Part shown: positions 1 to 61,511 of the stretch, one piece after another | Layout: every line of letters starts with the position of its first letter | Numbering within the stretch: position 1 is the stretch's first letter | Assembly: GCA_010093995.1 (NCBI GenBank) | Contig: ML992512.1 | Coordinates: forward strand, 467,736 to 531,735 | DNA length: 64,000 nucleotides | Source: Elsinoe ampelina | Lineage: Eukaryota | Reading direction: 5' to 3' | Notes under the pieces: model-generated | Databases searched by the model: none | What the model was told of the DNA's origin: nothing | The model's input: the letters and a program-made list of their open reading frames with translations, nothing else | Translations under genes and position numbers: made by a program

Positions 1-562
1 CCGCAAAGGCCGCGGCTATAACCCCGCCACCACTTCAGGCGGACTCATCAACGCCGTACCGTCGCCTGAAGACCCGCTCGGCCTGCCCCCATCAACCGAC
101 TGGCGCGGCCGCAACTCTCAAAGGGAAATGCATTCTACCAGCCAGACCTTCAGCCTTGAGCGCGGGACCAGCGCCACTCGCAACCGCGCCCGCAGCACAA
201 GTCGATCCCGCGCCCCTCAGGCGGCGAGGTTCCAGAACTCGAGTGCGTACGCTGCTTTGACAGGGGCACCGGAGCCGACACAGCCCGTCGCGAGAGAGAG
301 GGAGAGGGAGAGGCAGCTCTCTGGCGGCGGCGGCGGGGGAGGTGTTGAGGCGTTTGTGCCCGGCGGATTGTTGGAGCAGGCTGCTGGAGGATGGGGAGCA
401 GGGGACAAAGGCCGCGGAGTGACAGGTACGTCTGGCAGAGGAGGTGCGGGGAAGCCGTTGGTGGACCTGAGTGAGGCGGGGATGTATGGGAAGGGGAGTC
501 TGTTGGAACGACAGGCGAGGGCGGAGGGGGTGAGAGGGCCGGTGATTGATAGAGATGGTTGA
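1..562 (+). CDS. 3' end of a gene entering from the left; low-complexity C-terminus resembling conserved fungal PH-domain proteins
   Basis: Frame 2 is open from base 2 to TGA at 562 (RKGRGYNPATTSGGLINAVPSPEDPLGLPPSTDWRGR...GKPLVDLSEAGMYGKGSLL). The KGRG...SPEDP.GLPPSTDWR and KP.VDLSE...GSLL blocks recall C-termini of Pezizomycotina PH-domain proteins (from memory). Confidence 0.55.
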   Translation, partial: RKGRGYNPATTSGGLINAVPSPEDPLGLPPSTDWRGRNSQREMHSTSQTFSLERGTSATRNRARSTSRSRAPQAARFQNSSAYAALTGAPEPTQPVARERERERQLSGGGGGGGVEAFVPGGLLEQAAGGWGAGDKGRGVTGTSGRGGAGKPLVDLSEAGMYGKGSLLERQARAEGVRGPVIDRDG

Positions 563-3379
563 GGATAGACAGTAGAGAGAAGTGAAGGAGTGATGGATGG
601 GATGTGGTTATCATGAAGGAACGGCCATGAGGGATTGAGACATGCATTTCCGAGATGAAAGATACCTCGGCGTAATGTAGCCAGCTTCTATAATAGGACA
701 TTCCGGTCTGAACAGGCCAATGCAAGACATGAACTTTTGATCTCGGTACCAGATGTCCCATGTTGACCTGCAAGACATGCTTTTCTCCACGCTGGGGGCC
801 GCGGACGGCAGGGCTGAGCTGCAGTGTACCAGACGGGTAAATGCAAATGCACCGCAGATGCAGCCGCGGACGCAGATGCACTACTCCTCCGACCACAACC
901 CCTCCCTAGTGCACCATGCAGTGCAATGCACTTCTCGAGATTATTACCCCTCTATAGCTCCTCAACCACCACTGTCACGGAGACACGTGCCCCTCCTCCC
1001 CTCCTCCGTCTCGCCGCCTTGGCCGCTGGAGCCGCACACAACTAAAGTTAGCCAAAACTCAGCGCAAATGTCCCCCCGGGTAGAGGCGTCTGGACCGACG
1101 GGTGCAAGTCAGGAAAGACGCGCTAGGTATGTGGTTGAGGACAAAGGGGCGTCCAGTGGGAGCATGAGAGGGAGGCAGAGGGGGGAGTTTGAGCACGGCC
1201 GTCGTCTGCAAATAGCTGGCAGGGTACGGATCCTGTACTGGAGGTGTCGATGCAGGGCTTGGATGACGCTGGACGAGTGCATCGGGGGGAATGAGTGATG
1301 TCGTGGATGGTGCGGGCCATGGCATCATGTTTGGTCCTGTACTACTGTACAAACCGGGCAGCGTCTCGGGCTGCAGTCACTTCGCTTCGCACGTCAGGAG
1401 GGAGTGAACGGGTATCCCAACCGGATCAATCTCGGAGCCGATACAGCGACAGAGAAGAGAGTGAAGCCGAAAATCTCGCATACCGCTCATGCAAATTCCC
1501 CTTCGCCTGGTTTGACGCGGGGTCTGTGCTGGGGTTTGACGTCTTGGTTCTGGTCATGCAGGCCTGGGCCTGGCGCTAGTGGGAGATCATTGGGCTGGAG
1601 GAGATCGTGTTTCATGGGCTAGGGCGAGGCTGCATGGTATGCATGTGCTTGGGTGAGGATGATGGTTTAATCGAGCGGTCGGGGGGAAGCAGGGAATGGA
1701 TTCAGGATGATGGAGATGTGGTTGATGTCGCGGGATCTGCGTGGAGGATGATGGCGATCATGAGTGACAGCTGCTTGTGTGTGATCTTTGTCCTTGTTCT
1801 TATTCTCGCGGTTCGCCGATGTTAGAGATTACAATGAGGCTATTACTGAACACGTGGAGAGAGAGGGCAAGTGGTTTGTTCCAGGAGGTTCTGGTCCTTG
1901 TGGTTCTGGTTCTCCTTGACATGCAACTCGACAGATCATCGTCGCCCACATGTGAGATCGGCGATTTGAGCCGCTGTGGAGTTCTTGACGAGACCAGAAA
2001 AATCAAGGTTGAGAAAGTGCCAAAGTGAACGCCAGCTCGGGCCAGTTGCTGGTTGCGATTCGTCTGGATATGACGTGGATTAAGGGTCTTGAACCATGTC
2101 TTTGGGATGTGCCTTGATTGTGAGACATTTTTCGGGTGTTGAGGAGGAATTGGACGGGAGTAGGGGTGATAGGAGGATGCGTTATGGGAGGTGAGAAAAG
2201 GTACTTGGGCCTACGCACATGGCTGAAGGCTGGATGAACAGGACCTTGGAAATATGGTAGTACAATGCTGATGAGCAGGGAAGTAGTCCGTAATAGATTG
2301 CAGATTGCTGCCGCGACGTCAGCGTCAGATGCTTCAAGGTTGTGAATGATTGCGCATATGCATGTGGATCTGTCTAGCATCCGAAAGCACGACTCGGTGG
2401 TCATGCATGCAAATGGAACGGTCTGCTCTATCAAGATCAGGCAATTGGAGTTTCTCTTCACGTGCACGAAAGCGTCAACCGCGCGGAATGGAAACAAAAG
2501 TGGATGCTCTGCTTCAGAAACTCTGCCGCGATTAAAGTGCGGCGCTGTCTTCCGATTGGTACAAATGGAAGCAAAGGAAATCCAGAGTCACGGTCGACAT
2601 GCGAAAGGATCAAAGACAAGTGGTGAGACGCTATGTGCTGACAGAGCTGTAGCCCGGGTTGAAAGGCGAGAGCTCAGTATCTTCCATCATCCGCGGGCCG
2701 AGTCAGCAGACTTGGCTGTGAGCCTGTAGTTATTTTATTGAACGTGAGTTGCAATTGCACCTGCAGGTCTTGTATACGAAAGGTACAGTAGCATCTGAGC
2801 GAAACTCGGACCCAGCGAACAAAGGGACCCTTGCCACGCTTTGCTCTCACTCGCACTGATCACATTCTTGAACTCGCGCCCAATTCACATACGAGATAGC
2901 TGCCGTCATAAACCAAAAACCATGCCCCTCGCCCTGCCAATTCTTTTGGTCTCTCACGCACAGTAGTGACATTCCCAAAACCTGCTTACAATCTACTTCA
3001 CCAGGCCTGACGGACTAGATCCGGTCCAGGGCTGAAAGAGAGCAGCACCGACCCCTCATTTGGCTCTCATTTAGATTGCGTCTTGCCTGTCCGAGACCTC
3101 AATCAAGCTTTCCCACTCGCAATCAGGCCAGGGCTTCTGATACCGATCCAGCCTTGGTTTGAGCCTGCTTCACTTGCAGAGTCCACTCTTTTTTTGACCG
3201 ACCACCCACCCACTTCTTCTCATCCATCCCTGCAGCGACCCGGACGACACTGGCTGCGACAGTCTGACGCCTGCGCTGGCGTTGGACCCCTCCTGCAGCT
3301 CCTCGACGCTACTGCTATTTTTCCGCCTCGCATCGATATACCCAATCTCACGCCCCGAAACGTCGCACAACATCCCACC

Positions 3380-4513
3380 ATGTCTGCCACCGTCGACTAT
3401 CCCGCCGCTCCGTTCGGTGCTGTGCCTCACCGGAAACCTCTGCCATCCACAGCCACGGCATATCCGAGCGTGACCGGCAATGACCAGATCTACACGCGGC
3501 AGCCATCACACAATCACACTCGCAGTGCATCATCCTCCGCCATGCCCTACAACGGCCCGCCGCCATCGTATACCAACTACCAGTCTCAAATGCACATGCA
3601 ACCAATGACACGACGCACACTCTCCAATGCCACTTCCAGTACTGCCTCCTCCGGTCCAAACACTTCCGCCATGAACCGCGCTCCGACAAATACTTCTTAC
3701 GGCAGTTCAATTCGTCGCTCCACCTCATCGCGCAGCCAGCAGCAGAATGCTACATCATATGTGGCCCTGCTCCGACGACAAAAGGCAACTGTCTGGTGTG
3801 ACCGTGCTCAACATGAGGATCCACGCGTCCTCGCTCAACAACGACAGGCAAAAGTACGCGCAAATATGGAAGTAGTCGGTGGTGTGAATCCTGCATCTCG
3901 CACATCTACATCTTCTGGTGGGGGTGTCAGGAGCAAAATTCGACATCACGGTGCAGTCAAGGCCTCCGCCTTCCAGGGGCAGAACATGTCGGGCGCTGGC
4001 GTCCCCATGCGATTGTCCGCGAGCGAGGTCGATGACAACGAAAGCGATGATGACAGACTAAAGGGCACAAGATACGCGAGGACAGGCAGTGGTCGCAGCT
4101 CACTCAGTTCCGGTCATAGGGTCAGCATGTCCGCTGCAGCCCCTCCTATGGCTCACCGGGTGAGCAGCGGTGATGCCCCATCCAGCAGACACAGCTATTC
4201 TCCTGTCGACCCAGCGAGTCTACGCCACGCCAGCGTGTCACAGGAGACCCCAGTACCGAGTGACTACGACAGCAGTCAGGACTACTTTGCGAGAAACACT
4301 CAAGGAGGGACTGGTATCAGTGGTGGATCAGGCAGCAGTGAAGAGCGTGGGTTCGGTGAGATGAGCAATCTGCCACAACGTAGGGAAGACGACGAGCAGC
4401 AGCAGAGGAAGAAGACGAGCGAGGAATTGAGGAGGAGAGGAAGTGTCGATGACAGGACCATGACCATGAGTGGAGTCAGGCTTTTTGTCGCCAACCCAGA
4501 TCTGAGCGATTGA
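3380..4513 (+). CDS. Conserved fungal hypothetical protein, Ser-rich and disordered
   Basis: Single ORF with a good ATG context at 3380 (CACCATG). Conserved-looking blocks YVALLRRQKATVWCDRAQHEDPR, GVPMRLSASEV and terminal RRRGSVDDRTMTMSGVRLFVANPD. Confidence 0.8.
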   Translation: MSATVDYPAAPFGAVPHRKPLPSTATAYPSVTGNDQIYTRQPSHNHTRSASSSAMPYNGPPPSYTNYQSQMHMQPMTRRTLSNATSSTASSGPNTSAMNRAPTNTSYGSSIRRSTSSRSQQQNATSYVALLRRQKATVWCDRAQHEDPRVLAQQRQAKVRANMEVVGGVNPASRTSTSSGGGVRSKIRHHGAVKASAFQGQNMSGAGVPMRLSASEVDDNESDDDRLKGTRYARTGSGRSSLSSGHRVSMSAAAPPMAHRVSSGDAPSSRHSYSPVDPASLRHASVSQETPVPSDYDSSQDYFARNTQGGTGISGGSGSSEERGFGEMSNLPQRREDDEQQQRKKTSEELRRRGSVDDRTMTMSGVRLFVANPDLSD

Positions 4514-5417
4514 GGTTGAAGAGCGAGGTAGAAGTGACAAGCGTTACAAACAGGGACAAGCAAAGCATTTACCGGGAGTACACAGGTTGGATCGGGACAC
4601 AATCGCTTGGGTATACCACTTTGCACAATGGGTCTGCCTTATGGCGGCAAAGAAGCATGGCATGAAATGAGATAGATTTATGGGATATGGAATGCAATGA
4701 CTGATTTTACCGACATTGAATGCCCTAACATGTCGGGGGACTGATATGCTTTACATGATCTTAGTCTGGTACACATCGAGATCGTTATTCAACCCTTGAC
4801 ATACCCTTGACAGAGGGTTGCTAATATTCTCGTAGAAGCATGCATTGACGCTGCAAAAGAAAAGATGACGCCTGGAATTGCCACTCCGTGATCTCAGGGC
4901 ACCTTTGACCACAACCGCCTGCACAGCAACACTACTAGATACATCCAATTATACACAGAATTTGATCCGACATGGTCCCAAGCCCTGCATCTCAGGTTAC
5001 ACAGTCGTCAGCGGCCCTTGCATAAATCTCGTCTGTAAGCGGCAATCTCCCAACTTCCCTCATCCGCGAGACCTCCAGGCCAGCGGTAACCGCAGAACCT
5101 TCGCGCCACACACTACCGACATCGACGTTCACTAAACGTTTATCGAACTTAGACGCCTCTTGTCGTCGTACAAGTATAAGTACATGATCCCTTGTACCGT
5201 TCCTCCAGGATTAGGACTAGGATCACGGGCATTCTCAATCACACCACCGGGACAAGCTCCCACTCACTAGTCTGTGCGGCTCACAGATCTGGTCTCTTCC
5301 TTCAAGGTCTGGCCGCCGGCCGATATTGAGACAACAGCAGCACGTGGCTGGCTCGCGTCTGAACTCTCCAAGCATATCAACAGCATCGATATCATTCTAG
5401 CTTACGACCTCGCAATC

Positions 5418-6704
5418 ATGTCGGTCACTCTTCCTCTCCCACTCTCTATCCTCCTGCCCCTTGTTGCGGCCGCCTATCTCCTGCTGCAACGGACCCTTCG
5501 CTTTCGCCGCCTCCATGCTCTCCAGTCACAGTACCCCCCCTCATCCTTCCCCAACATGACACTCACCGAAGCGTACAACATCCACTATTCGCTTACCGCG
5601 CTCGAATTCCCCACAACGTTCTCTCAATCTGTCTTTTTCGCCCTCTTCAAGACATATGGCATTCCTACCATATCCTCTCTACTTCTTCACACATCCGAAC
5701 TTTCTGGCCCTACAGCCTCGAAGAGAGCTGCAGACACGGGCGTACTTCTCACCGAAATCTTCCTCAATCCACCAGGAAGCGACCGCGCCAAGAGAGCCAT
5801 GGGAAGGATGAACTACCTCCACTCCAGATGGCAGAAAGCAGGCAAAATCTCAAACGAAGACATGCTCTACACCCTCTCCCTCTTCGCTCTCGAACCAGCT
5901 CGATGGGTCTCGCGATACGAATGGCGCCCCCTCTCCGACGTCGAACAAAACGCCCGAGGCATCTACTGGCGCTGGGTGGGCGAAGGCATGGGTATCGACA
6001 TGTCGCCACTCCTGCACCACTCCACCCCAAACAAGCTGCCAGACGCCACGCCCCTACCACAAAACAAACCACCATCATGGCCCCACGGTCTCGCCTGGAT
6101 GCGCTCCCTCGAAACCTGGTCCCTCTCCTACGAAGAATCCCACATGCTCCCCGCCCCGAGCAACCGCTCCGTCGCAACCGGCACCGTCGGCATCCTCCTC
6201 ACCAACGTGCCCCCCTCCCTCCACTCCGCCGCAGACCAAGCCATCCGCGTCCTCATGGAGCCCCGTCTCCGGCGGAGCATGATGTATCCCGACCCTTCCC
6301 CCCTCGCTTCCCGCTTGGTCCTCGGCATCCTAGCCCTGCGCAAATGGATACTTCTCCACCTCGCGCTTCCCCGACCCTGGGTGCTGAGGTGGAAATGGTT
6401 CGATCCCCAAGAGGACGCCGAGGGACGGATTCACGCGAGGCAGTTCACGGCGCATCCGTGGTACGTGCGGCCGTCGACGGGGTGGCGGTGGGGGGTTAAG
6501 GGGTTGTTGTTGCGGTTGGCGGGAGGGGTGGTGCCGGGTGATGAGGGGGGGAGGTATTTGCCGCAGGGGTATCGGATTGAGGATGTGGGGCCGGAGAGGC
6601 AGGTGGGGAGGGGGAAGGAGGAGATGAGTAGAGAGGTGGAGAGGTTGGGGAGGGATGAGAAGGTGGATGGGGAGGGGAGGGGGTGTCCTTTTGGGATGTG
6701 GTAG
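5418..6704 (+). CDS. ER-bound oxygenase, MpaB/rubber-oxygenase-like family
   Basis: N-terminal TM helix (LSILLPLVAAAYLLLQ); family-type motifs FALFKTYGIPTISSLL, KRAADTGVLL, RMNYLH, ISNEDMLYTLSLFALEP, HPWYV and terminal GCPF. Confidence 0.85.
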   Translation: MSVTLPLPLSILLPLVAAAYLLLQRTLRFRRLHALQSQYPPSSFPNMTLTEAYNIHYSLTALEFPTTFSQSVFFALFKTYGIPTISSLLLHTSELSGPTASKRAADTGVLLTEIFLNPPGSDRAKRAMGRMNYLHSRWQKAGKISNEDMLYTLSLFALEPARWVSRYEWRPLSDVEQNARGIYWRWVGEGMGIDMSPLLHHSTPNKLPDATPLPQNKPPSWPHGLAWMRSLETWSLSYEESHMLPAPSNRSVATGTVGILLTNVPPSLHSAADQAIRVLMEPRLRRSMMYPDPSPLASRLVLGILALRKWILLHLALPRPWVLRWKWFDPQEDAEGRIHARQFTAHPWYVRPSTGWRWGVKGLLLRLAGGVVPGDEGGRYLPQGYRIEDVGPERQVGRGKEEMSREVERLGRDEKVDGEGRGCPFGMW

Positions 6705-7432
6705 GGGGGGGAGGGGTACTTGGATACGCATTGGGAGATGCAAATCGATTCGGATTACACGCATACCGTGGTAGAAGAGGTTTATTCTCGATGTCACTAC
6801 ATGACTGCCCGACTCAATTCGATGTCTGCTACGAGGAGAGCCCCATACCGATCTTGTCTCAAGCTTCACCACAGTGGAGCAGACGACAGAAATTGTCATT
6901 GGCGCCGTACACAGGTTACTTTGTCTTCGTATGCCCGCCATCGCTCTCTCATCATCAGTCCTAGTAGCGGCTATTTTGACTTCCCATCCACCACGAAGCC
7001 AATAGCTTATATGTCAGCCCTCCCGTTCCTTCCGTTTCGTCGGACCTCAGGGTTCAGGGACTGATCGTGCCATCTGATATATCATGTAGGTCATGCATGT
7101 AGATAGTCCCAAGGTCATCGAGATAGCTGCACCGGAACCGTGAGGAAGCATCCATTATTCGGTATCGCGGTTCACCGGAAGTTGCTGAGATCTGTCCGGC
7201 GTCGGTCATTTGGCGTACGAGCCTATGCAGACCAAGCGAGTCGATCTTCTCTTTGGCGACGTCGACGAGCGGTAGTAGCCCAGCGGATGGGTCGCACATG
7301 CCTTCTCTCCAGCTGGTAGCCTAGGAGAGTGCTGATCTAGGCGGCGGAGCTAGCTGCATTCTACTGTCCAGATACAGCTTCTTGACCCCACGCTGGAGCG
7401 CACATGCCATATCGCCGTTCCCCTACTGTGAA

Positions 7433-8374
7433 TCAAGCAAGTTCACTCAACCTCGGGATAGCATCCATAGCACCACTCCTCTCAACCGTCTTCGCCGCAG
7501 CTCTATTCGCAAACCGTATAACCTCCCACGGCTCCTCCAGCCCCTTCCCACCAGCAGCCGCAATCTTCGTCGCCAACCCACCAACAAACGTATCCCCAGC
7601 AGCAGTCGTATCCACCACCCTGACCTTCTCAGCCGGCACACTCATCACCCGTCCAGCATTCGGCCCCGTCCTCGAGACCCACTCCACACCCTTCGATCCA
7701 AGCGTCCGGATGGCGATATCCCGCACACCACGCGCGAAGAAGAACTCATCCCACGACTGATCCTGCCCTTGGCACATGATCTCCGCCTCCGTCTCATTGA
7801 CCACGATACAGTCTACACTAGCGTAAACCTCCTCTGGCAGCGTGATCGCCGGCGCCGGGTTGAAGATGACATACTTTCCCTTCTCGCGGGCGATGTGGCA
7901 ATTATGCACCACCTGCGCCACGGGGATTTCCAGCTGGAAAACCATCACGTCTGCCTCATCGGGCACCAGATCCCGAAGTGTGTCCTGGTTGGCGTGGTTC
8001 GCGTTCGTGGCGACCAGGATCCTGTTCTCGCCCGTCTCGGTCTCGACGATGATGTTGGCGATGCCGGTCTTTTGTCCTTGGATCACGTCGATGTGGGAGG
8101 TGTCGATGCCTTCTTGCTGTAGGGCGGCGAGGTAGTCGGTGCCGAAGGAGTCGGAGCCGACGTTGCCTACCATCATGGTTTTGACGGTGGAGGAGGTGGC
8201 GTCGCTGGTGCCGGAGAGGCGGGCGCAGGCGACTGCTTGGTTGGCGCCTTTGCCTCCGAAGCCGGTGTTGAAGGAGGTTGCGGTCAAGGTCTCGCCGGCT
8301 GAAGGGACCCGGGGGGTGTTGGTGATGAAGTCGATGTTGAGGGAGCCGACTACGGCGACGATACCGGATGGCAT
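7433..8374 (-). CDS. RBK1: Ribokinase (PfkB family)
   Basis: VVGSLNID, GGKGANQAVACARL, NETE and DTTAAGDTFVG PfkB signatures; intronless, 313 aa. Confidence 0.93.
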   Translation of the reverse strand: MPSGIVAVVGSLNIDFITNTPRVPSAGETLTATSFNTGFGGKGANQAVACARLSGTSDATSSTVKTMMVGNVGSDSFGTDYLAALQQEGIDTSHIDVIQGQKTGIANIIVETETGENRILVATNANHANQDTLRDLVPDEADVMVFQLEIPVAQVVHNCHIAREKGKYVIFNPAPAITLPEEVYASVDCIVVNETEAEIMCQGQDQSWDEFFFARGVRDIAIRTLGSKGVEWVSRTGPNAGRVMSVPAEKVRVVDTTAAGDTFVGGLATKIAAAGGKGLEEPWEVIRFANRAAAKTVERSGAMDAIPRLSELA

Positions 8375-8635
8375 GTTGAATGGTGTTCTCCTGGTTTGCT
8401 ACTTTTTGGGAGTGGGTTTGAGAAGGAGGAGACATGCATGAAATTCTGTGCTTGAAATGTGGACTCTATCGGACTAGGCCGAAGAACTGGCTCGGCCCAG
8501 CGACTTACCTGTGATCTATGGTCAGTGCTACATCCTGCCACTGTGAACATGGCATGCACGAACAGTCTTACAACTGATGATGGTTTCGACGTGAGAGAAA
8601 CAGAGGACAGTCTCTCCTGAATGACAACATCGGCC

Positions 8636-8863: not shown

Positions 8864-9977
<1,114 letters not shown>

Positions 9978-10197
9978 AGGTGATGGAGGACGTCAGAGAC
10001 ATGCATATGGTGCGGCCGGTGCATAGAATGTACATCAGAATGGACAGATGAATATATCCACCGTCCGACGACCTGTGAAGAAAGCTGAGATTGGTCCCGA
10101 AAGCTCTTTACATGCTGTGCAAGGTATCGACAAACAAGTCCACATAATACAAGTGTTCCCTTTTCTTCCAGGGCCAACCTACTCTACAAATATGCCA

Positions 10198-18756: not shown

Positions 18757-19305
18757 CAGGGAAGATTAAGGTATGTTCACGAGGGAGAGGAGGGGAGAGA
18801 GAGAGAAAGGGATGGGGAGAAGCGTGTATCTATTTGTTAGCATTTTCACTGGGCAGGGTCAGTCATGTTTGGACTTTTTTCTGTAGCACGAGGAGAGGGA
18901 AAGGCATATTGCGCTGACACAAAATGGTGGACAGGGTAGGGTATATATGCATGCCGGATAGACAAGTGTCAAAGCCCCACTTTTGTGTTCATGTGGAATG
19001 TCTACTGTGCCCTGTGACCTTTTTTGCTGTTCCTGTGACCTCGGGGTGGGAGGGTCGATCCGACTCCTTCTGTTATGCGATGCTGAATGGCAGATGCTAG
19101 ATGCTAGACGCTAGGTATTTCCAAGTTTCCAAATTGCCGGTGTGACGCGGGAAAGTCCAAAGTGCTCCAATATGCTCATCTCCCGTTGTCATCATCATCA
19201 ATACAGTCCTTCCCTCTACCTTGTTTGGGCCTTTCCTGCCCCGTTCCTGCTCTTCAACCACTCTCCTCCTTATTCTGTGCATCTCCTGTGTAGAGTGTGA
19301 TACAA

Positions 19306-41344: not shown

Positions 41345-41608
41345 GGATTTGATCACCGTTAATGTATCAAATCAAATGGGACCCGAATGGCATGAGAAGA
41401 GAGTCATCCAGGAGAAGACGACAAACCAGACCGTCAGAGCAGCTCCGATCGATCTTGCGAGTCAGACCGACTCGGAAGAGAAGAACTGTGATCAAGCTGA
41501 GCAGGACACACGCGCTGTTCTCAGAAATAGATACCCCAACGCTATGAGATCATTACATCCACCCCATCTCCCCTCAACATCCCCACCATCCCCTCCCCCC
41601 ACGACCCC

Positions 41609-51401: not shown

Positions 51402-53078
51402 ATGCGTAGACAAACGTTTCGAATCACAGTGAAGGCGCAGGAGGTTCGGAATTGTCGCTCGCTTGCGAGCCGGACCTCCTCGGCTCAAAAGAGGTCCTCG
51501 GATTTCAGTGCTTCCAGGCTTCATCGCAATGATCTATCGAGACGGCCTCCATCCATATCAGGACGACTCATCGGAGCCGCAGCTCAGAAGTCCACACGAG
51601 ACCACAAAGACGAACCTGTCCCGCCACCTACAAAGACTGAGCTTCTAGCCTCGGCTCTATCGGAACACGAAGCTTCTGATCTGGTAGCACCTGTTCGGAT
51701 ACCGGAGGATCGCCATGGCGTCCTTCAAAAGGACCATCCAGCGATGGGCATCCTGAACAACTCTGCCGTCGTGATTCAGAGGCAGATAGAGATGATGAAC
51801 GTATTCCTCGGCTACGAACAAGCTAATCGATACGTTATAATGAATGGCCGTGGAGAGACGATAGGTTATCTCGCTGAAGAAGACCATGGCTTTGGCCGTG
51901 CTATAGTACGACAGATGGCACGCACACACCGTAGCTTCACAGCACACATTTTCGATATTTCTGGTCGAGAGATACTGAGGATCCACCGGCCCTTTGCATG
52001 GATCAACTCTCGCATCCGAATCTACGACCCAATCACGTCAAGCTCCTCTACCCCTCACACATCCCCTGCGGCCAGTGCCTCTGACGGCACCACCGTAGCA
52101 AATGAGAGATCAACCTCTACGATACCTCTCTCAGACATGCGAATCATCGGTGAAGCACAACAGGAATGGGCCCCACTCCGGCGCAAGTACAACCTCTTCG
52201 CCTACCGTCCTTCCCCATCCACCCCCGCTCCAGAATCCCCCACCTCCGACGTCTCCAAATCAATGGTTCAATTCGCCCGCATCGACTCCCCCTTTCTCTC
52301 CTGGGACTTCCACCTCGAATCCTCCACCGGCGCCACCATCGGCAGCGTGAACCGCAACTTCAGCGGCTTCGCCCGCGAAATCTTCACCGACACAGGCGTG
52401 TACGCACTGCGAATGGACTCCGTCGCCTCCCCTAGCCCTAGCGCTTCGCCGCAAGCCCAACCCTCGGACAAAGCCGTCGAAATCCTCAGCGAACCCCTCA
52501 CCCTCGACCAGCGTGCCATCATGCTCGCTACGGCAGTGAGTATCGACTTTGATTACTTCTCCCGCCACTCCAATTCCGTAGGCGGTATGCCACTCCCGAT
52601 CTGGATCCCCGGCATGGGCGGCGCAGCAGGCGAAGCAGGCGCCGGGGCGGGAGCCGCCGGTGCCGCAGGAGCAGCAGGCGAAGCCGGCGTTCTCGGCGGG
52701 GCAGGAGAAGTGGCCGGTGCTGCAGGCGGGGCAGTTGCTCGGGGCGCCGGAGTGGCCGGGACTGCCGGACTGGAAGCCGGGTCGGCGGGTGTTGCTGGCG
52801 CGGGAACAATGGCCGGGTACGAGGCCATGCAGCGCGGGATGGGGAGAGGGGAGGGGCAGGCGCAGCAGGCACCGCCGGATGATGCGAGTCCGATGGCGCA
52901 GGGGTATGATCAGGGTCCGCCTGGAGAGTCCCCTGGAGCCGGCGCGGGAAATGGTATGCAGGAGGATACATGGGGTACGGACGCGGATCCGTTCGACAAG
53001 GTTGACGTTCCGGGCGGGGACGGTGGAGGGGATGGAGGGGGCTTGTTGTCTTCGCTTTGGGACTTCTTCGGTGAGTGA
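51402..53078 (+). CDS. AIM25: Mitochondrial phospholipid scramblase family protein (Aim25-like)
   Basis: Arg/Ser-rich presequence; VIQRQIEMMNVFLGYEQANRY, RPFAWINS, WAPLRRKYNLF, PFLSWDF, REIFTDTGVY, LDQRAIMLATAVSIDFDYFSRHS; Gly/Ala-rich tail. Confidence 0.9.
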   Translation: MRRQTFRITVKAQEVRNCRSLASRTSSAQKRSSDFSASRLHRNDLSRRPPSISGRLIGAAAQKSTRDHKDEPVPPPTKTELLASALSEHEASDLVAPVRIPEDRHGVLQKDHPAMGILNNSAVVIQRQIEMMNVFLGYEQANRYVIMNGRGETIGYLAEEDHGFGRAIVRQMARTHRSFTAHIFDISGREILRIHRPFAWINSRIRIYDPITSSSSTPHTSPAASASDGTTVANERSTSTIPLSDMRIIGEAQQEWAPLRRKYNLFAYRPSPSTPAPESPTSDVSKSMVQFARIDSPFLSWDFHLESSTGATIGSVNRNFSGFAREIFTDTGVYALRMDSVASPSPSASPQAQPSDKAVEILSEPLTLDQRAIMLATAVSIDFDYFSRHSNSVGGMPLPIWIPGMGGAAGEAGAGAGAAGAAGAAGEAGVLGGAGEVAGAAGGAVARGAGVAGTAGLEAGSAGVAGAGTMAGYEAMQRGMGRGEGQAQQAPPDDASPMAQGYDQGPPGESPGAGAGNGMQEDTWGTDADPFDKVDVPGGDGGGDGGGLLSSLWDFFGE

Positions 53079-53595
53079 AGTTTTGGAGTCTGCGGAGCCT
53101 CGGTATTTGTCCTTTGTGACATCGTTCCTTTTTCGGCATATACGCATGCATGGTGGGTCGTATCACTATACTCTCGGATGTATATCATGGGGAGGCGTCT
53201 GGCATGAGCACACATCGGCTGGGGTTTGGGAGTGAAGAGAGATGGGGTTCTGTATGTCATAATCTGGGCCCAAGGTGCCTATCACGATACTCACGATTAG
53301 AAACGAAAATGTACATGTCGACACAACTTGGTTTAGCATGACTCTGTGAAGATGGTTGTGAACGTGGACAGCATCGGCCGTTGAGTTGATGTGCTTGATG
53401 GCAGCAGGCATATGATGTGTATGTTTGCATTCCATTTCGTGTACTTCGTTATTGAGACCCCCGCCTCATACTGGTGTATAGCTACGCTCAAAAGCATCCG
53501 CGCCTCGCTAATATGATAATATACTTCGTATCACCATGCTATGCTTGTAAGATATGATTCTACTGCAGATCTGCTCATTCTCAGAGCTGTGAGGA

Positions 53596-56096: not shown

Positions 56097-58081
56097 ATGA
56101 TGCCGAGTGCGCAAGATGTCTTTGTCTGCCTTAGCTCGGCTTCGCTTCGCGTGTTCAGCTACATCTTCCTTAGATGGGTGAGTACCACCAAACATTTCAC
56201 AATAGACCAGTACTGACAGACCGTAGATACCAGGTCATGTAAGACTGATGGACCTGAGATGATGTACGTTCACTGATGATCTAGCATTTCCCGCCTCTTA
56301 TCCTTTCTGCGCTTGTCCTCTACCTGGCTACACTATTCTGGGTCTACCCTGACAGGTTTTTGGTTGCAGATACGCGGTCAGCCAAGGACTATAGAAGCAT
56401 CACCAGTGAGAAAGAGGCTCTTCGAAATGGCAGTGCGCGTCCCTCTGGGGGCAATTCTCTTAGGGACGATGGCAAGATTACACCTCTGCAACACTCAAGT
56501 GCAGTTTGGACTACACTTCTTGGTCTACCCAAGTCTAAATACAGACTTCTGAACTGGAGTACTATCTTGATCAACATATTGCTTGCAGGGATGATGGTGG
56601 ATCTGACCTATGGTCCAAAGTGGTTTTATCCTTCTCGTGACCTCTCCTTCGCCAGGGTCGGCTTTGTCTCCTACGACAGTGCGAAGATAATGGTCCGAGA
56701 GCCAGACATTAGACGACTACCGATTCATCTTGAATATCGTCTAGATCCCAAAGTACCAGACGACACTGTTAGTGCCTGGACATCGGTAGCTACAGCCTCC
56801 AGTCTCAAAGACGACAACGACTTTACTGCAGCATTCGATATCCCGTACTTGTTACCTGCCACAAGGTACCAGTATCGCGCTTCGACCAACCACACTGGTG
56901 TCTTCGTCACAGCTCTTCGGCCAGGGGTCAACCCTTCATCATTCACATTCCTTCACTCTTCTTGCATAGTCCCAAATTTCCCCTACGTTCCTTTCCGACA
57001 CCACCTCTCCTTCCCCGGTTTCAAGCACCTCTCCAACAACCTTCCCTCCTTGAAGGCCCAATTCATGCTCTTCCTCGGCGACTTCATCTACATCGACGTC
57101 CCTCACCGTCACGGAACCGACCGCGAATCCTACCGCCGCGAATACCGTCAAGCCTACGCCAGTCCCGACTGGCCATCCATCTCATCCTCCCCACCAAACA
57201 CCACCCACTCCCTCCCCTGGATCCACGTCTACGACGACCACGAAATCGCCAACGACTGGGACAAGAACGAAACCGGCGTCTTCCCCGCCGCCCTCGACCC
57301 CTTCACCCACTACCAATCCAGCATCAACCCCCCCTCCGACCGCCCCAACGTCTCCTACTACTCCTTCACCCAAGGGCCCCTCTCCTTCTTCCTCCTCGAC
57401 ACCCGCCGCTACCGCACCCCCTTCGACGGCACGCCCGGCCACTGGACCGAACCCACCACCCCGCCGACGGCCCGCAAATCCATGCTCGGCGAGACACAAC
57501 GCCAGGACCTCCTCACCTGGCTCGCCGCCCCCGCACCCCGCGGCGTGCACTGGAAAATCCTCGTCTCGTCCATCCCCTTTACGAAAAACTGGCGCTTCGG
57601 CTCAGAGGACACATGGGCCGGCTACCTGGGCGAGCGCAAAGTCATCCTCGAAGCCATGTGGACCGCCTCTGCGGAGCTCGGGGTGGGCGTCGTCGTGCTG
57701 TCGGGGGACAGACACGAGTTTGCCGCTACCAAGTTCCCGCCTCCTCAACTTGATGATACAAAGGACGTGGAGTCGACCCAAGCTGGCGCGGGCAGGGAGG
57801 GCACTTGGCCTGAGTATGCGGCTGTGCATGAGTTCTCCGCTAGTCCGTTGAGTATGTTTTACTTGCCGGTGAGGACGTATAGGCAGGAGGATCGCGAGGA
57901 TGTGGTGATCAAGTATTTGCCGGACGGGAATAGTAAGTTTGGAGCGGTGACGGTGGGCAAGGAGGGGGGGTTGGGGTATAGGTTGTTTGTGGATGGGAGG
58001 GAGGCGTGGAGGTATGAGTTGCCGCCGCCGGGACGGGGAGGGAAGAAGAAGGGGGAGGGGGAGGGGTGGGGGATTTGGTGA
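56097..58081 (+). CDS. phoD: PhoD-family alkaline phosphatase, membrane-anchored; exons 56097-56177, 56227-56238, 56285-58081
   Basis: FMLFLGDFIYIDVP, YDDHEIANDW, LLDTRRYR, SMLGETQ, DTWAGY..ER, VLSGDRHEF; N-terminal TM segments; 12-nt micro-exon (IPGH). Confidence 0.9.
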
Positions 58082-58646
58082 GAGGGGGAGGGATCGCCGT
58101 GGGACAGAGGAGGGTAGGGTTTGTGTGTCTGGGTGAAAGCTGCCCGTAGAAGTTGTAAAAGGTGTATAGATCGGTTTCGATATTTTCTCGATGTAGCAGG
58201 TCTGTACAATGGTGCGGTGAGGTGCAGATGCGGTAGCCGTATCATGTCTGCTCTGGAAGTAACTTGATGACTTGAGTCTTGAACTGTCCCATAAAGTAGC
58301 TCACATGGTCTGGCAGAACGTGAGCCGTCCTGGAACAAAGCAATCGCGGCTGCCCGGCAGTGGTCATCACGATCTGATAGTATCTTCTCGAACGATATCC
58401 AGCAGCTCAGTCGACGCCGATGCAGGCATGGCACGCTGGTAATACCCCAAGTGCTTACTTACCTTCCAGGAATCTTACTGTCAAGGCCATAAACATAATC
58501 ACTAGCGCGAAAGTGGCAAACAGGGAATAAGCTGAAACCACAAACATCCTCCGTTGCATTTGTGCATTTGAGAACAATCCTGCTCCCTGGGTATCATATC
58601 AAACACGACGTGCCCCGAAACGCCAAAAAGATTTTCACCCCTGCTG

Positions 58647-61511
58647 TCACTCCCTGATCTCCCCCTCCTCCGACCCCTCCTCCTCCATCACCACATCCCC
58701 ACCCTCATCCTCCTGCGTCTCCTCCACCACCGCCCCCTCCTCTACCTCCATCTTCCTCCCGACCAGAACCACCTCCCTCCCGCCCGCCTCCACCCTCACC
58801 GACCCCACCACCAACCCCTCCCACTCCTCCCCCAACTCCCTCTCCACCTCCCGATCATGCTCCTCCCACTTCTTCCGCCCACACGACCGCGCCGCCAAAA
58901 CGACATCCAGAATCTCCACCACCAGCCCCTCCTTCCTCCCCTCCGCCCCCATCAGCGAATTCCACACCCTCATCCCCACTTTCTTCTCCTCCCAACGCCC
59001 CACCGCCTCCCCCGCCGCAGGGACATGCACTGTACCCCTCTCCTCCACCCCCAGCGCCTCCACCAGCTGCTCCTCCGAGTCGACCACCGCGGCGCCGTGC
59101 TGGAGCGCAGCGGCCTTGGCGGACGCGTACTCCGCCGGATCTTCGTGGCGGCGGCGGATGCATACTACCGTCCCGCTGAGGGGGCAGGCGGTGTGCTCCC
59201 CTCCGCTGGCGCGGGTGAGGTATGCGCAGCGGCCGTGGAGAGGTCCAGGGCCGGTGGGTGGTGGGATGCGGTTGGACATCTCTGCTGTTCGAGACGGGGA
59301 GATCTGTGCTGGTGGCGGATGATGTGGTTTGATAACAAGAGGTTGTGGGAGCTGTATGCGTGGTTTTTTGCGAGGAGGTGAGGACGAAGGAGTACCTGAG
59401 GCTTGTTGTTGTGGTGGAGATTTTCGTTTCAGGGGCGAAGTCGGGGTTGTTGTTGCGCTTGCACGGGCGATTTTTCGGCGGCAGCTTTTCTCGATTCGGG
59501 CCATCCAGCGCAGGTTTTCTTGCGATTCCGAGTCCACGGGGGCGGAGAGGGCCTGCTTGGCGAGCTTTTGCAGGTCGATGAAGGGCACACAATCTCGCCA
59601 CGTTCGGTCTTCGTGCAGCTTTTTGACGCGAGGGTGGCGTAGCATCCAGTATCCGCAATTGGAGGGCTTCTCGTAGGAGCTGCCGAGGACTTCGAAGACG
59701 AATGGCACACGAAGCGTGATGTCCATGCGAGGATGATCTGAAACGAGATCGAAAGAGCTTGGAGGCTGTGAGGGAGTGAAGTCCTCGGCGGAGAGACGAG
59801 CGAGGGTTATGGCTTTGGGCAAGATTGTTGGTAGTATACAGCTGTCTGCTGAGATGGTGCCGACGACTCTGAAGCGAGGTCTTTCTTGGTATCTCTCCAC
59901 ATCCTCCTGGTTCATCAAGCAGCCCACATGGAAATGAGTATAGCTGTTGCGACCCAGACCCTTAGTGATGGCTAGCTGAGCATCATAGGATGCTCCGACT
60001 ACAGCCAGATCAGCTTCATCTCCTAGACCATTGATGTAGTCCTTCTTCAGCTTGATCACCGACGACCTCTCGTTATCGTCTCCTGGAATAGCTAGATACG
60101 GACGACCACATGGCTTCAGGACGAGTCCTTCATGTCTTGCGGCGACTGAGGCGGCGAGATGATTCATGAGCTTCCGCTTGGAGTCATCATCTGCAAAGTC
60201 GAGCACCTTGGACTCTGCGACAATTGCTCGGCCTATCTTGGTCTTGACTAGGTTGACCAGGAGAGATTTGCGTTCCTCGAGAGGCTTCTGCATAACATTG
60301 TTGTCATCATGAAGCAGTAGATCGAAGAAGACAATCATCAGATGCTCGTGCTGATGGCGTGGAGAGTCCTTTGCTGTTCCAAGGTATGTTCCAGACCTGG
60401 GTACGTATTTCCGTATCTTGTGGAAAGGCATGATCTGCTTCTCCTGTTCGCTGTATACAACCATCTCTCCCAACAGGACGCACTTTGATTTGACCTTGCA
60501 CCTGTCAGAGCCGATCGACAGACTCTTCCTCAAGGTCTCCCGGAGAGCCACCCTATCGTCGGTGGAGTTTTTGCCACTCTTTGAGAAGATCTTCAGCCAG
60601 TCTGTGCCCTTCGAAAGATCGATGTGCATCTCGCAATACTCTCCATCGTACTTTCTTTCGATCATCCATCGTCGCTGTCCTGTAATCTGGAGACAGTGGT
60701 CGATGGATCTGGCCTTGACGAAGCTTGATCTGGAAATTTTGATGCCGACTTGAGGTCGATACGAGCCAGAGACTAGCTTGCGGAGGAGACTTGCCGATTG
60801 TGCATCTGGACAACTTGGATACTTTCGGAAAGGTCCTTTCAAAGTCTCTGCCGCTACTGTGAAGTCATGCTGGAATCGAAGAATGTCCGGGAGGAGAAAG
60901 TGCAGAGATCTAAGCACGAGATACTCGTCAAGCTTGACTGGTGAGAGGTCCTTCAAGATGAGACGGATAAGCCACTTTGCCTCGCTCGGTGAGGAACGGC
61001 GTATGATATTGGTCAGAGCCGCCTGAGGATCGACTTGCGGGTTGTATTCTTGTCGCACCTCGGGCGAAGAGTATTTATAGCCACTTGCTAGTGCGCAAAG
61101 CATCTTGTCGACTTCATCGAGGGTCACGGGTGGTGTAGCCGGGGGGCCACCGCCTTCCAAGACTCGTTCCAAGCAGTCAGCCAGATCGCCATTACCTGGC
61201 TGTTTGTACACATTGAGGTCTCTTGATCGAGATGACGAAAGCCCTAGCGTCCGACAGAGAATTCTCGAAAGAGTTGTGTGTTGCATGCCATAGACCCGAT
61301 CTGTGCGGCGCTCAGGTAGAAAGGACGACAGCAGTGCCGCCGCTTCTGCAGCGTCAAGACCATCTATGGCTCTTCGATGAGCTCTGAACCAGCTTCGGAT
61401 CTCTGTCGTGACACGAGCATCTCTGTCGACCGGTAGAAGAGGAGGGTCACGCTGGTGAAAGTCTTCTAGACTCGATAGTAAGTGGCAGAAGACTGAGAAT
61501 CGTAAGGTCAT
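58647..61511 (-). CDS. ATP-dependent DNA ligase, ligase-IV-like fungal paralogue without canonical tandem BRCT
   Basis: DNA-binding N-domain (LPERRTDRVYG, KWLIRLILK); motifs I ERKYDGE, III LLGEMV, IIIa VFFDLL, IV EGLVLK, V KLKKDY, VI LRHPR. Confidence 0.85.
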   Translation of the reverse strand: MTLRFSVFCHLLSSLEDFHQRDPPLLPVDRDARVTTEIRSWFRAHRRAIDGLDAAEAAALLSSFLPERRTDRVYGMQHTTLSRILCRTLGLSSSRSRDLNVYKQPGNGDLADCLERVLEGGGPPATPPVTLDEVDKMLCALASGYKYSSPEVRQEYNPQVDPQAALTNIIRRSSPSEAKWLIRLILKDLSPVKLDEYLVLRSLHFLLPDILRFQHDFTVAAETLKGPFRKYPSCPDAQSASLLRKLVSGSYRPQVGIKISRSSFVKARSIDHCLQITGQRRWMIERKYDGEYCEMHIDLSKGTDWLKIFSKSGKNSTDDRVALRETLRKSLSIGSDRCKVKSKCVLLGEMVVYSEQEKQIMPFHKIRKYVPRSGTYLGTAKDSPRHQHEHLMIVFFDLLLHDDNNVMQKPLEERKSLLVNLVKTKIGRAIVAESKVLDFADDDSKRKLMNHLAASVAARHEGLVLKPCGRPYLAIPGDDNERSSVIKLKKDYINGLGDEADLAVVGASYDAQLAITKGLGRNSYTHFHVGCLMNQEDVERYQERPRFRVVGTISADSCILPTILPKAITLARLSAEDFTPSQPPSSFDLVSDHPRMDITLRVPFVFEVLGSSYEKPSNCGYWMLRHPRVKKLHEDRTWRDCVPFIDLQKLAKQALSAPVDSESQENLRWMARIEKSCRRKIARASATTTPTSPLKRKSPPQQQASGTPSSSPPRKKPRIQLPQPLVIKPHHPPPAQISPSRTAEMSNRIPPPTGPGPLHGRCAYLTRASGGEHTACPLSGTVVCIRRRHEDPAEYASAKAAALQHGAAVVDSEEQLVEALGVEERGTVHVPAAGEAVGRWEEKKVGMRVWNSLMGAEGRKEGLVVEILDVVLAARSCGRKKWEEHDREVERELGEEWEGLVVGSVRVEAGGREVVLVGRKMEVEEGAVVEETQEDEGGDVVMEEEGSEEGEIRE

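Follow-up and report, generated by a model that had tools for sequence, protein, structure and literature searches.

The 64,000-nucleotide stretch of Elsinoe ampelina DNA analysed here (the window) holds about 27 genes and is punctuated by blocks in which the plus strand is strongly C-rich and then strongly G-rich. Measured in 200-bp windows, GC skew extends from -0.86 (at 25701) to +0.80 (at 6501 and 32401). With a switch called wherever the skew of the right 300 bp exceeds that of the left 300 bp by at least 0.6, the window contains 13 C-to-G switches (300, 6420, 9380, 18540, 19450, 26300, 32280, 41020, 41960, 42510, 52610, 57790, and 59090). At a threshold of 0.8, 50-bp block shuffles (200 rounds) yield a mean of 0.01 C-to-G switches, compared with eight observed. 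The 200-bp windows and the shuffles thus place the C-rich stretches of 0.2-0.9 kb and their G-rich continuations, as described by the first-pass annotation, well beyond chance. Twelve of its 15 switch points are recovered within approximately 250 bp, while the remaining three (1075, 4200, and 8000) show a weaker or a gradual change and stay uncalled; the regions that it listed as lacking the pattern (20-25, 27-31.7, 33-40, and 43-52 kb) contain no called switch of either polarity. The skewed stretches show 0 differences from RNA-derived contigs of other studies, so the blocks are not assembly errors. In the following list of domains, the third-position step (M) denotes the third-codon-position skew of the last 100 codons minus that of codons -300 to -100.

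1..700, plus strand: terminal part of a gene (ORF 2-559) that the window edge truncates, with a C lean at 1-200 and a G block at 301-600 that extends about 100 bp past the stop; switch at 300 (step +0.75), 259 bp before the stop, and G-to-C flip at 680.
900..1300, no strand: small C-to-G change (proposed switch 1075) with no confident gene placed; 100-bp skew -0.46 at 901 and +0.51 at 1101, uncalled at 0.6.
3201..4510, plus strand: weak domain (proposed switch 4200) in an ORF of 500 codons that has no Pfam family and lies in tandem with its downstream neighbour; C block 3201-3700, weak G lean 4301-4500, M = 0.39, uncalled at a step of 0.6.
5401..6800, plus strand: most of a 477-codon ORF; C block 5401-6300, G block 6401-6800, fourfold-site skew from -0.8 to +1.0; switch at 6420 (step +1.02), 281 bp before the stop, and G-to-C flip at 6780, 79 bp past it.
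7401..8400, minus strand: PfkB-family kinase gene (PF00294, E 7.9e-51; proposed switch 8000), M = 1.14; coding-strand fourfold skew starts at -0.91/-1.00 (5' end) and climbs to +0.89 (3' end), gradually and without a call.
9001..9980, plus strand: short-chain dehydrogenase gene; C block 9001-9300, switch at 9380 (step +0.87), G block 9501-9900 with two G-rich introns (+0.64 and +0.62) deduced from GT..AG ends and reading frame.
17801..19000, plus strand: last ~1 kb of a 2.5-kb DUF3405 gene (PF11885); C block then G block, switch at 18300-18540 (step +0.64), 213 bp before the stop, flip at 18970; 5' half unskewed.
19201..20000, minus strand: 3' portion of a long gene, seen as ORF 19309-22635 and likely to extend to 23877; the switch (+0.83) is at 19450, 141 bp before the stop.
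25401..26700, minus strand: DHH/DHHA2 exopolyphosphatase-like gene, skewed over its full length; plus-strand C block 25401-26100 and G block 26301-26700, switch at 26300 (+0.88); coding-strand quarters -0.60, +0.25, +0.83, and +0.67.
31701..33100, plus strand: small WD40 gene, skewed throughout; C block 31701-32200, G block 32301-33050, switch at 32280 (+1.25, the sharpest in the window); four inferred introns follow the local skew (-0.56, -0.78, +0.70, and +0.52).
40301..41450, plus strand: Voldacs (ICln-like) gene; C block 40301-40900, G block 41101-41400, switch at 41020 (step +0.82); flip at 41510 between two convergent stops.
41501..42900, minus strand: last ~1.3 kb of a SET-domain gene (>5.5 kb), whose exons are joined by spliced RNA-derived contigs up to 47155; plus-strand C block 41501-42000 and G block 42501-42900, switches at 41960 (+0.65) and 42510 (+0.90); remainder unskewed.
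52101..53100, plus strand: 3' part of a scramblase gene; C block 52101-52400, G lean 52900-53075, switch at 52610 (step +0.64), 465 bp before the stop.
56801..58300, plus strand: 3' two-thirds of a PhoD-like phosphatase gene; C block 56801-57500, G block 57801-58300 extending some 200 bp beyond the stop codon (58078), fourfold skew from -1.00 to +0.90; switch at 57790 (step +0.68).
58501..59500, minus strand: terminal part of the gene for an ATP-dependent DNA ligase; plus-strand C block 58501-59100 and G block 59201-59500, switch at 59090 (+1.02), 440 bp before the stop; skew of +0.9 over the last 150 codons.

The position of the switches is tied to the genes. Each of the 13 C-to-G switches falls within a gene body, at a distance of 141-898 bp (median 348) from the stop codon on its 5' side (P ~6e-5, with a chance expectation of 47% of genic positions). 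G-to-C switches fall in intergenic spacers in eight out of eight cases, seven of them 49-217 bp past a stop, and every convergent spacer (7/7) passes from positive to negative skew between its two stops. The claim that the polarity is always C then G results from the delimitation of the domains; G-to-C switches are also common (8 versus 13 at a step of at least 0.6; 3 versus 8 at 0.8 or above) and sharp (steepest step -1.07 at 41510). This near-parity in sharpness and frequency largely speaks against the bidirectional fixed sites envisaged by the first-pass annotation. Its claim of independence from gene strand carries no information, because reverse-complementing the pattern leaves it unchanged; read on the coding strand, each host gene is C-rich and then G-rich, with the switch near its 3' end.

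The same order extends to genes without a called switch. With ORFs defined mechanically as stop-to-stop frames, not as curated genes, here and in the metagene profiles, neighbour comparisons, and ORF count for other fungi below, M is positive in 19 of 20 window ORFs of at least 300 codons. This nearly general 5'-3' gradient likewise tells largely against fixed sites, albeit with very uneven strength: M reaches 0.6 or more in seven of the 20 ORFs, and the genes for septin, the Utp12-type WD40 protein, both DUF6604 proteins, SGT1, and the tRNA-splicing endonuclease are nearly flat. Aligned at the stop codon, the metagene third-position skew takes values of +0.67, +0.40, +0.43, and +0.10 over the last 120 codons, lies between -0.18 and -0.41 further 5' out to about codon -450, and is approximately zero beyond; the all-site profile is similar in shape, with positive skew persisting for about 200 bp past the stop. 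The unit thus measures approximately 1-1.4 kb and has two blocks, with the 3' end of the transcription unit as its anchor: on average, a G block covering the last 100-120 codons plus 100-200 bp beyond the stop, and a C block from ~120 to 450 codons 5' of the stop, upstream of which the skew is near zero. Third-position G+C rises to 0.8-0.96 within the unit (0.9-0.96 beside some switches), and G+C over all sites is highest (0.62-0.63) some 300-500 bp 5' of the stop, close to the median switch position. In long genes (ligase, SET-domain, DUF3405, PhoD, scramblase, and ORF 19309-22635), the unit is restricted to the 3' end. Between tandem genes, the region 200-500 bp past the upstream gene's stop, which forms the 5' region of the next gene, has a skew of -0.24 to -0.33. 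This resembles the C-skew that Fujimori and colleagues reportedly described in 2005 for plant and fungal transcription start sites, to which the background section of PMC3315797 refers broadly, in that the coding strand is C-rich near starts; that skew is anchored 5', whereas the strong blocks here are anchored 3'.

Silent positions carry the skew most strongly. Fourfold sites are C.59 and G.09 in C blocks, G.64 and C.10 in G blocks, and C.30 and G.25 elsewhere. The fraction C/(C+T) of two-fold pyrimidine sites is.77 in C blocks,.61 in neutral bins, and.23 in G blocks, while G/(A+G) at two-fold purine sites is.42,.68, and.91, respectively. The six inferred introns inside blocks follow them (-0.56, -0.78, +0.70, +0.52, +0.64, and +0.62), compared with -0.10 to +0.27 in seven RNA-confirmed introns outside. 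The skew therefore does not vanish at synonymous and intronic sites, a check proposed in the first-pass annotation, which was also right that protein family does not explain the blocks. Amino-acid usage differs from block to block (in G blocks, Gly 13.8% versus 6.0% elsewhere and Glu 11.5% versus 5.5%), as it would if Pro/Ser/Thr-rich segments followed by Gly/Glu/Val-rich tails caused the pattern; this explanation can be practically dismissed, because the fourfold skew (to -1.0/+1.0) equals or exceeds that at the first two codon positions, introns and 3' flanks show skew too, and orthologues outside Elsinoe mostly lack a strong shift at matching alignment positions. In the DHH protein, the amino-acid shift at the same alignment positions is +0.57 to +0.63 in the window versus +0.02 to +0.37 in orthologues outside Elsinoe, with one exception (+0.30 to +0.50). 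The footprint is common to three Elsinoe species, the genus to which the closest named relatives of the source belong, and the position of the block is therefore long-lived. The skew has thus shifted amino-acid usage, the protein following the DNA and not the reverse.

The gradient is also present in other fungi. On 848 kb of fungal metagenome contigs, where near-duplicate organisms are included and n thus overstates independence, 81 of the 107 ORFs have a positive M with the bait gene left out (sign test 9e-8), and the step is positive in all 45 full-length DHH orthologues (median 0.22, maximum 0.85; 0.93 in the window). The gradient on these contigs is usually weaker than in the window, and their switch density per 10 kb is 1.52 (C-to-G) and 0.98 (G-to-C), compared with 2.03 and 1.25 in the window. 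Gene arrangement is correlated with its strength: mean M is 0.76 for convergent (n = 13) versus 0.18 for tandem neighbours (n = 6) in the window (p = 0.0065), and 0.45 (n = 32) versus 0.20 (n = 43) in the other fungi (p = 0.004), or 0.52 (n = 25) versus 0.16 (n = 38) when ORFs neighbouring the bait gene are also dropped (p = 0.0006).

Very probably, the pattern is the known fungal gene-oriented GC-skew gradient (McLean & Tirosh 2011, PMC3315797), unusually strong and anchored at the 3' end. The accessible part of that paper describes a 5' C-bias and a 3' G-bias, an effect at fourfold sites, an extension into UTRs, and an influence on amino-acid usage; the species list includes filamentous Dothideomycetes, and the accessible part of it does not name Elsinoe. 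The window shares with the gradient, as far as that part describes it, a coding strand that favours C upstream but G at the 3' end in either gene orientation, the fourfold-site bias, the spread into flanks, and the amino-acid shift. It differs from the same account in its extreme amplitude (fourfold skew to +/-1.0; third-position G+C 0.8-0.96), in the C zone of long genes, which adjoins the 3' G block and not the 5' end, and in the keto/amino character seen at two-fold sites.

Replication origins at each C-to-G switch, with an asymmetry between leading and lagging strands, were among the causes suggested initially and are very improbable. The skew of bacterial replication origins switches from C-rich to G-rich with a keto/amino character, and mammalian origins show upward skew jumps; the sign and the keto/amino character of the switches here are the same. 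However, replication asymmetry is replicon-wide and should reach the next termination zone, whereas the blocks here span at most 0.9 kb and the skew is approximately zero within about 1.3 kb. Origins would have to number 13 in 64 kb, all within coding sequence and 141-898 bp before stops. Eukaryotic replication skews are subtle, and the silent-site amplitude of 0.6-1.0 far exceeds them; besides, the pattern tracks gene orientation in 81 of the 107 ORFs of other fungi. Both the scale and the place are wrong for origins.

Conserved meiotic double-strand-break hotspots, located a few hundred bases 5' of some stops, constitute an unlikely alternative. Biased heteroduplex correction on the invading strand would enrich C to the left and G to the right and raise G+C if C/C and A/C mismatches were corrected worse than G/G and G/T; the polarity derived in this way would fit the observed one. 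The C and G blocks form a single unit of ~1-1.4 kb, which resembles gene-conversion tracts in size; G+C peaks near the median switch, with the highest third-position values beside some switches, and the C block of long genes adjoins the G block, away from the 5' end. Strand-coordinated mutation clusters at resected double-strand breaks likewise show a strand bias that reverses across a point, with about 1 kb on each side. Yet damage to 3' overhangs would be expected to give a G/T-rich left and a C/A-rich right side, a polarity that matches the intergenic G-to-C flips but not the C-to-G switches. The fall of C/(C+T) from.61 to.23 in G blocks is directed towards A+T, opposite to plain GC-biased conversion. 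Since the gradient occurs in most ORFs of many fungi, most genes would require a 3' hotspot, and the DHH footprint in three Elsinoe species implies a long-lived position. In baker's yeast, moreover, convergent spacers are cold for breaks.

Selection on nascent or mature RNA is unlikely, although several features agree with it. G-rich 3' ends might favour pausing and R-loop-assisted termination at closely spaced gene ends, while the C-rich zone upstream could prevent premature RNA hybridisation; a related published idea is that C-avoidance at 3' ends controls polymerase flow, and an adaptive C-avoidance hypothesis appears in the accessible part of McLean & Tirosh (PMC3315797). The G block has the same orientation as the gene, reaches across the stop into the 3' flank, and is more pronounced beside a convergent neighbour. 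In the part available of Ginno et al. 2013 (Genome Res 23:1590, PMC3787257), terminal GC skew and mapped R-loops coincide at the 3' ends of closely arranged human genes, with an example at the ends of two convergent genes. According to that part, the human skew resembles the present one in its co-oriented coding-strand G-richness around the gene end, beginning before the poly(A) site, and in its enrichment where the next gene is close. It differs in that the enriched class is tandem in humans and convergent in the window and the other fungal contigs, no preceding C-rich block is described there, and the human R-loops were mapped, whereas the present pattern is known from sequence only. Selection would have to act on almost all silent sites over about 1 kb despite the protein cost in Gly and Glu, and the pattern is absent from many genes with convergent neighbours (e.g., SGT1 and DUF6604a). 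No specific structural element is evident: G runs, four-run G motifs, and G-quadruplex motifs do not exceed the frequency predicted by base composition, which lends no support to the G4 part of the initial R-loop/G4 suggestion.

A strand-asymmetric process, as first proposed, is likely, acting on DNA or nascent RNA (judging by fourfold sites and introns); bidirectional sites fixed without regard to genes are not supported by the placement of the switches (13/13 and 8/8). The favoured cause is a mutation pressure that differs between the strands and is linked to the transcription unit; whether this, as opposed to selection or recombination, is the origin of the pattern is an evenly balanced judgement. 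Transcription-linked mutation or repair would affect one DNA strand, with a sign that changes along the unit. In the terminal zone, the non-template strand would lose C (to T and G) and A (to G), as expected from damage to exposed single-stranded DNA, e.g., in R-loops at slowing or terminating polymerases; just 5' of it, the opposite strand would suffer the same losses. The reversal itself is left unexplained by this model, and we know of no transcription model that accounts for a reversed zone beside the terminal one. Three further observations count against the favoured mutation pressure: the uneven strength across genes is not predicted by plain transcription dependence, the G+C rise within the unit is not a product of plain cytosine deamination, and the C block of long genes does not lie at the 5' end, unlike in the simple 5'-C/3'-G description. 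R-loop-type and hotspot-type causes are conceivable only as processes anchored at gene 3' ends.

On the whole, a gene-anchored gradient combined with a transcription-linked mutational cause is rather probable for this locus. The larger step beside convergent neighbours sets the window apart from the gradient of McLean & Tirosh, as the strings 'convergent', 'tandem', and 'neighbo' are absent from the text of PMC3315797, and the larger step at facing gene ends may be novel.

The strand-asymmetric composition of the window constitutes an extreme, 3'-end-anchored example of the published gene-linked skew of fungi. The window has a G+C content of 54%, and its GC skew in 200-bp windows reaches -0.86 and +0.80; the skewed stretches have a G+C content of 0.56-0.69, compared with approximately 0.51-0.53 in the rest of the window. 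With a switch called from the skew of the right-hand 300 bp minus that of the left-hand 300 bp, a threshold of 0.6 yields 13 C-to-G and 8 G-to-C switches, and a threshold of 0.8 yields 8 and 3, respectively (mean for shuffled 50-bp blocks at 0.8: 0.01-0.02). Twelve of the 15 switch points proposed in the first-pass annotation are recovered; the other three (1075, 4200, and 8000) show a weak or gradual change. The skewed sequence is real, as it shows no differences from RNA-derived contigs of other studies; the contigs of four runs (X3, X4, X7, and X8), which behave as spliced RNA of the same strain, differ from the window at three single-contig positions in 20 kb. At four sites inside the skew blocks (42630, 57944-57978, 58808-58839, and 59035), the contigs of separate studies coincide in where they break off or fork, continuing into unrelated, likewise C- or G-rich sequence. 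Evidently, short-read assembly is confused by low-complexity blocks of this kind.

The observation is thus real, but its original framing, as a series of fixed sites independent of gene strand, hid its anchoring to genes, and a reading as sites independent of genes lacks support. A C-then-G pattern is its own reverse complement, and therefore the presence of host genes on both strands carries no information; the distance of the switches from stop codons does. All 13 C-to-G switches fall within gene bodies, 141-898 bp (median 348) 5' of the stop codon, where 47% of genic positions would lie that near a stop by chance (P ~ 6e-5). All eight G-to-C switches fall in spacers, seven of them 49-217 bp past a stop. 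In the following six long genes, the unit, i.e., a block C-rich on the coding strand followed by a G-rich one, is confined to the final 0.8-1.4 kb.

Long genes with a unit at the 3' end only
DUF3405 gene
ORF at 19309-22635, minus strand
SET-domain gene, longer than 5.5 kb
scramblase gene
PhoD gene
ligase gene

Stop-aligned profiles define the shape of the unit. For ORFs of 400 codons or more (n=11), third-position skew is +0.67, +0.40, +0.43, and +0.10 across the last 120 codons, -0.18 to -0.41 out to approximately 450 codons before the stop, and close to zero further upstream. The all-site profile stays positive until approximately 200 bp 3' of the stop; for genes with convergent neighbors, the first 200 bp of the 3' flank show values of +0.33 and +0.12, and within each of the seven convergent spacers, positive skew on the side of the first stop gives way to negative skew on the side of the second. 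Regions at the 5' side that lie downstream of tandem genes are C-rich (-0.24 to -0.33). Short genes are C-rich right from the 5' end, while in long genes at least the first 200 codons have a skew near zero and the C block occupies the stretch 120-450 codons 5' of the stop. In long genes, the feature is a self-contained unit tied to the 3' end, as opposed to a gradient over the whole gene. The difference in third-position skew between the last 100 codons and codons -300 to -100 (hereafter M) is positive in 19 of the 20 window ORFs of at least 300 codons, reaching at least 0.6 in seven and -0.6 or lower in none; gene-level counts of this kind rest on approximately 27 genes.

The silent sites, binned by codon position in 25 ORFs or exons, reveal the character of the asymmetry. 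Fourfold-site skew swings from -0.9/-1.0 to +0.9/+1.0 inside single genes (PfkB, the DHH/DHHA2 exopolyphosphatase-like gene, a small WD40 gene, PhoD, ligase, and a 477-codon ORF). The pooled figures for each site class point to an asymmetry of G+T versus A+C (keto/amino), alongside which third-position G+C rises to 0.8-0.96.

Silent-site composition pooled from 30-codon bins (C blocks; neutral bins; G blocks)
Fourfold sites, A/C/G/T:.17/.59/.09/.15;.23/.30/.25/.23;.11/.10/.64/.15
Two-fold pyrimidine sites, C/(C+T):.77;.61;.23
Two-fold purine sites, G/(A+G):.42;.68;.91

Six introns within blocks, deduced from GT..AG ends and reading-frame continuity, follow the local skew (-0.56, -0.78, +0.70, +0.52, +0.64, and +0.62), while seven RNA-confirmed introns outside blocks range from -0.10 to +0.27. 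The encoded proteins are shifted accordingly: G blocks are enriched over neutral bins in Gly (13.8 vs. 6.0%), Glu (11.5 vs. 5.5%), and Val (10.8 vs. 5.8%), and C blocks in Pro (9.1 vs. 5.5%) as well as Ser and Thr.

The DHH/DHHA2 protein (gene in the skewed part at 25401-26700, minus strand) allows this shift to be followed across relatives. Its nearest named relatives are those of Elsinoe batatas (91% identity) and E. fawcettii (70%), followed by Sphaceloma murrayae (61%) and Myriangium duriaei (57%). For bins 5-7 of the eight alignment bins, the amino acids by themselves imply a skew of +0.57 to +0.63 for the window protein; the values for E. batatas and E. fawcettii are +0.52 to +0.67 and +0.32 to +0.61, respectively. 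Eleven orthologs outside Elsinoe and Sphaceloma lie at +0.02 to +0.37 or below, with the exception of Rhexocercosporidium, in which the implied skew is raised (+0.30 to +0.50); low values are also found in an ortholog of 62% identity (+0.13 to +0.36) and in S. murrayae (+0.19 to +0.29). The shift is thus common to the three Elsinoe species and much weaker in all but one of the 13 more distant orthologs compared. Protein composition as the cause of the skew is ruled out by the fourfold sites, the introns, and the ortholog comparison, and the earlier view that protein family does not explain the pattern is upheld; composition is shaped by the DNA skew, not the reverse.

A skew of this type has been described before. 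According to McLean & Tirosh 2011 (PMC3315797), the coding strand is C-biased at the 5' end and G-biased at the 3' end in most surveyed fungi, among them filamentous Dothideomycetes; the bias is present at fourfold sites, reaches the UTRs, and alters amino-acid usage, and one mutational and one adaptive hypothesis are put forward for its cause. The window shares with this gradient the C-then-G polarity in either gene orientation (seen in M and in the metagene profiles), the fourfold-site bias, the spread into the flanks, and the matching amino-acid shift. It therefore belongs to a phenomenon known since 2011. No paper on the pattern in Elsinoe was found in the open-access literature searched.

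The generality of the pattern is reflected by 80 stretches of fungal metagenome contigs (848 kb) encoding DHH orthologs. C-to-G switches number 1.52 per 10 kb in these stretches (window: 2.03) and G-to-C switches 0.98 (window: 1.25), and 3.5% of the 200-bp tiles have an absolute skew of at least 0.5 (window: 7.8%). The 5'-to-3' step is positive in all 45 full-length DHH orthologs (median 0.22, maximum 0.85; 0.93 in the window). When the DHH ortholog used as bait is left out, 81 of 107 ORFs have a positive M (sign test, 9e-8). The window is thus an extreme member of a continuum. Steps of 0.62-0.85 in the DHH gene of four contigs (L059, L057, L060, and L061) come near the window's value, which indicates that strong forms of the gradient exist beyond Elsinoe.

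The size of the step varies with the orientation of the downstream neighbor, here defined as the closest ORF of 200 or more codons no further than 2.5 kb away, with ORFs taken as mechanical stop-to-stop frames. In the window, mean M is 0.76 with a convergent neighbor (n=13) and 0.18 with a tandem one (n=6; Mann-Whitney p=0.0065). The other fungi give 0.45 (n=46) vs. 0.20 (n=59) with the bait gene included (p=1e-4), 0.45 (n=32) vs. 0.20 (n=43) without it (p=0.004), and 0.52 (n=25) vs. 0.16 (n=38) when the ORFs neighboring the bait gene are also dropped (p=0.0006); as several contigs come from closely related organisms, these tests overstate independence. The larger step beside convergent neighbors is an additional regularity and possibly a new detail. 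No paper on it was found in the open-access literature searched, which is not proof of its being unpublished, and the terms "convergent", "tandem", and "neighbo" do not occur in the text of PMC3315797. In Ginno et al. 2013 (PMC3787257), human terminal GC-skew zones likewise show a co-oriented G-skew peak around the gene 3' end; however, they are enriched near close neighbors that are mostly tandem, whereas the neighbors favored in the window and the other fungal contigs are convergent. Two tandem DUF6604 paralogs (982 and 1,115 codons), side by side at 33563-40157 (minus strand), lack the unit, though one of them has a convergent neighbor.

One alternative explanation regards the two-block units as long-lived meiotic break sites, located a few hundred bp before the stop and mainly at converging genes, with the strand flip left behind by unequal correction of mismatches on the invading strand. 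Such a process can reproduce the polarity on paper and is compatible with both the length of the unit and a G+C maximum close to the switch. It is nevertheless improbable: GC-biased conversion would shift every class of site from weak to strong bases on either strand, whereas two-fold sites are shifted toward A+T (C/(C+T).23 in G blocks, G/(A+G).42 in C blocks); the gradient is general across genes and fungi, and its position is long-lived within Elsinoe. By analogy, Zymoseptoria also speaks against it, as PMC5844332 reports weak or absent GC-biased conversion and unstable hotspots there. Were break sites responsible after all, silent-site skew could reveal sites of recombination initiation straight from fungal genome sequence. 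A second, likewise improbable reading holds that convergent transcription feeds a self-reinforcing loop of R-loops and damage, which would rewrite the final kilobase of a gene and thereby the C-terminus of its protein. The replication-origin reading of the first-pass annotation fails on density, scale (blocks of at most 0.9 kb, a skew near zero beyond approximately 450 codons upstream, and no replicon-scale persistence), and position (13 of 13 switches inside gene bodies, 141-898 bp before the stop). G-quadruplexes or other run-based structures are ruled out as a separate feature, since runs and four-run motifs do not exceed what base composition predicts in the G blocks (runs of at least three G: 204 vs. 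235.5 ± 9.6 in shuffles; motifs: 7 vs. 8.6 ± 2.6) and the C blocks (runs of at least three C: 255 vs. 289.0 ± 9.8; motifs: 15 vs. 13.1 ± 3.0).

The target of the pressure behind the gene-linked skew is DNA or nascent RNA and not the protein; the pressure is strand-asymmetric, keto/amino in character, limited by the ends of transcription units, and G+C-raising. At the silent sites of G blocks, G is well above T, and T is above A and C. This order suggests that the coding strand there would have lost C to T and G, and A to G. Such losses might arise from damage on exposed single-stranded DNA followed by bypass, putatively in R-loop-prone terminal zones, and encounters between polymerases at the ends of convergent genes could boost the damage. 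The proposed mechanism leaves the opposite sign of the adjoining upstream zone unaccounted for.

The genes of the window form a typical filamentous-ascomycete set (DUF3405, DUF6604, TOM13, septin, PhoD, scramblase, SGT1, DNA ligase, and others). A codon-usage scan found no confident frame in 600-3000, 14.6-16.2 kb, 23.9-25.4 kb, and 47.2-48.4 kb. The first of these holds the switch point proposed at 1075, which is thus assigned to no gene. Within it, the plus strand is also G+T-rich for approximately 800 bp at 1500-2300 (1501-1600: A 9, C 21, G 41, T 29), with no confident reading frame on either strand; the stretch may belong to a UTR, a promoter, or a non-coding transcript. The long ORFs at 19309-22635 and 22639-23877 (both on the minus strand) are in frame with one stop codon between them, and 19309-23877 is probably a single gene of approximately 1,500 codons with the stop in a short intron, or a case of read-through or a pseudogene. 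At 56177-56285, the spliced contigs of three runs omit 107 bases and insert 12 other letters between the flanks, which may represent a 12-base micro-exon of the PhoD-like gene, in its 5' part. One contig of run X3 (41977-51164) spans several minus-strand genes, including those for the SET-domain protein, a ubiquitin-conjugating enzyme, and a tRNA-splicing endonuclease, with five introns removed; the transcripts may overlap or read through into one another, or the assembler may have merged them.

The amplitude of the skew is big enough to alter proteins, with Gly, Glu, and Val roughly doubled in G blocks, and work on codon usage, dN/dS, and gene prediction in genomes of this kind needs to take into account that composition varies with the position inside a gene. 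The effect of convergent neighbors restricts the candidate causes to what happens at the ends of genes, such as termination, read-through, polymerase collision, or the cohesin-rich zones of convergent genes, and is worth genome-wide testing. Because the skew alters proteins and the DHH shift is shared within Elsinoe, the lineage is well suited as a natural system in which to look for the cause.
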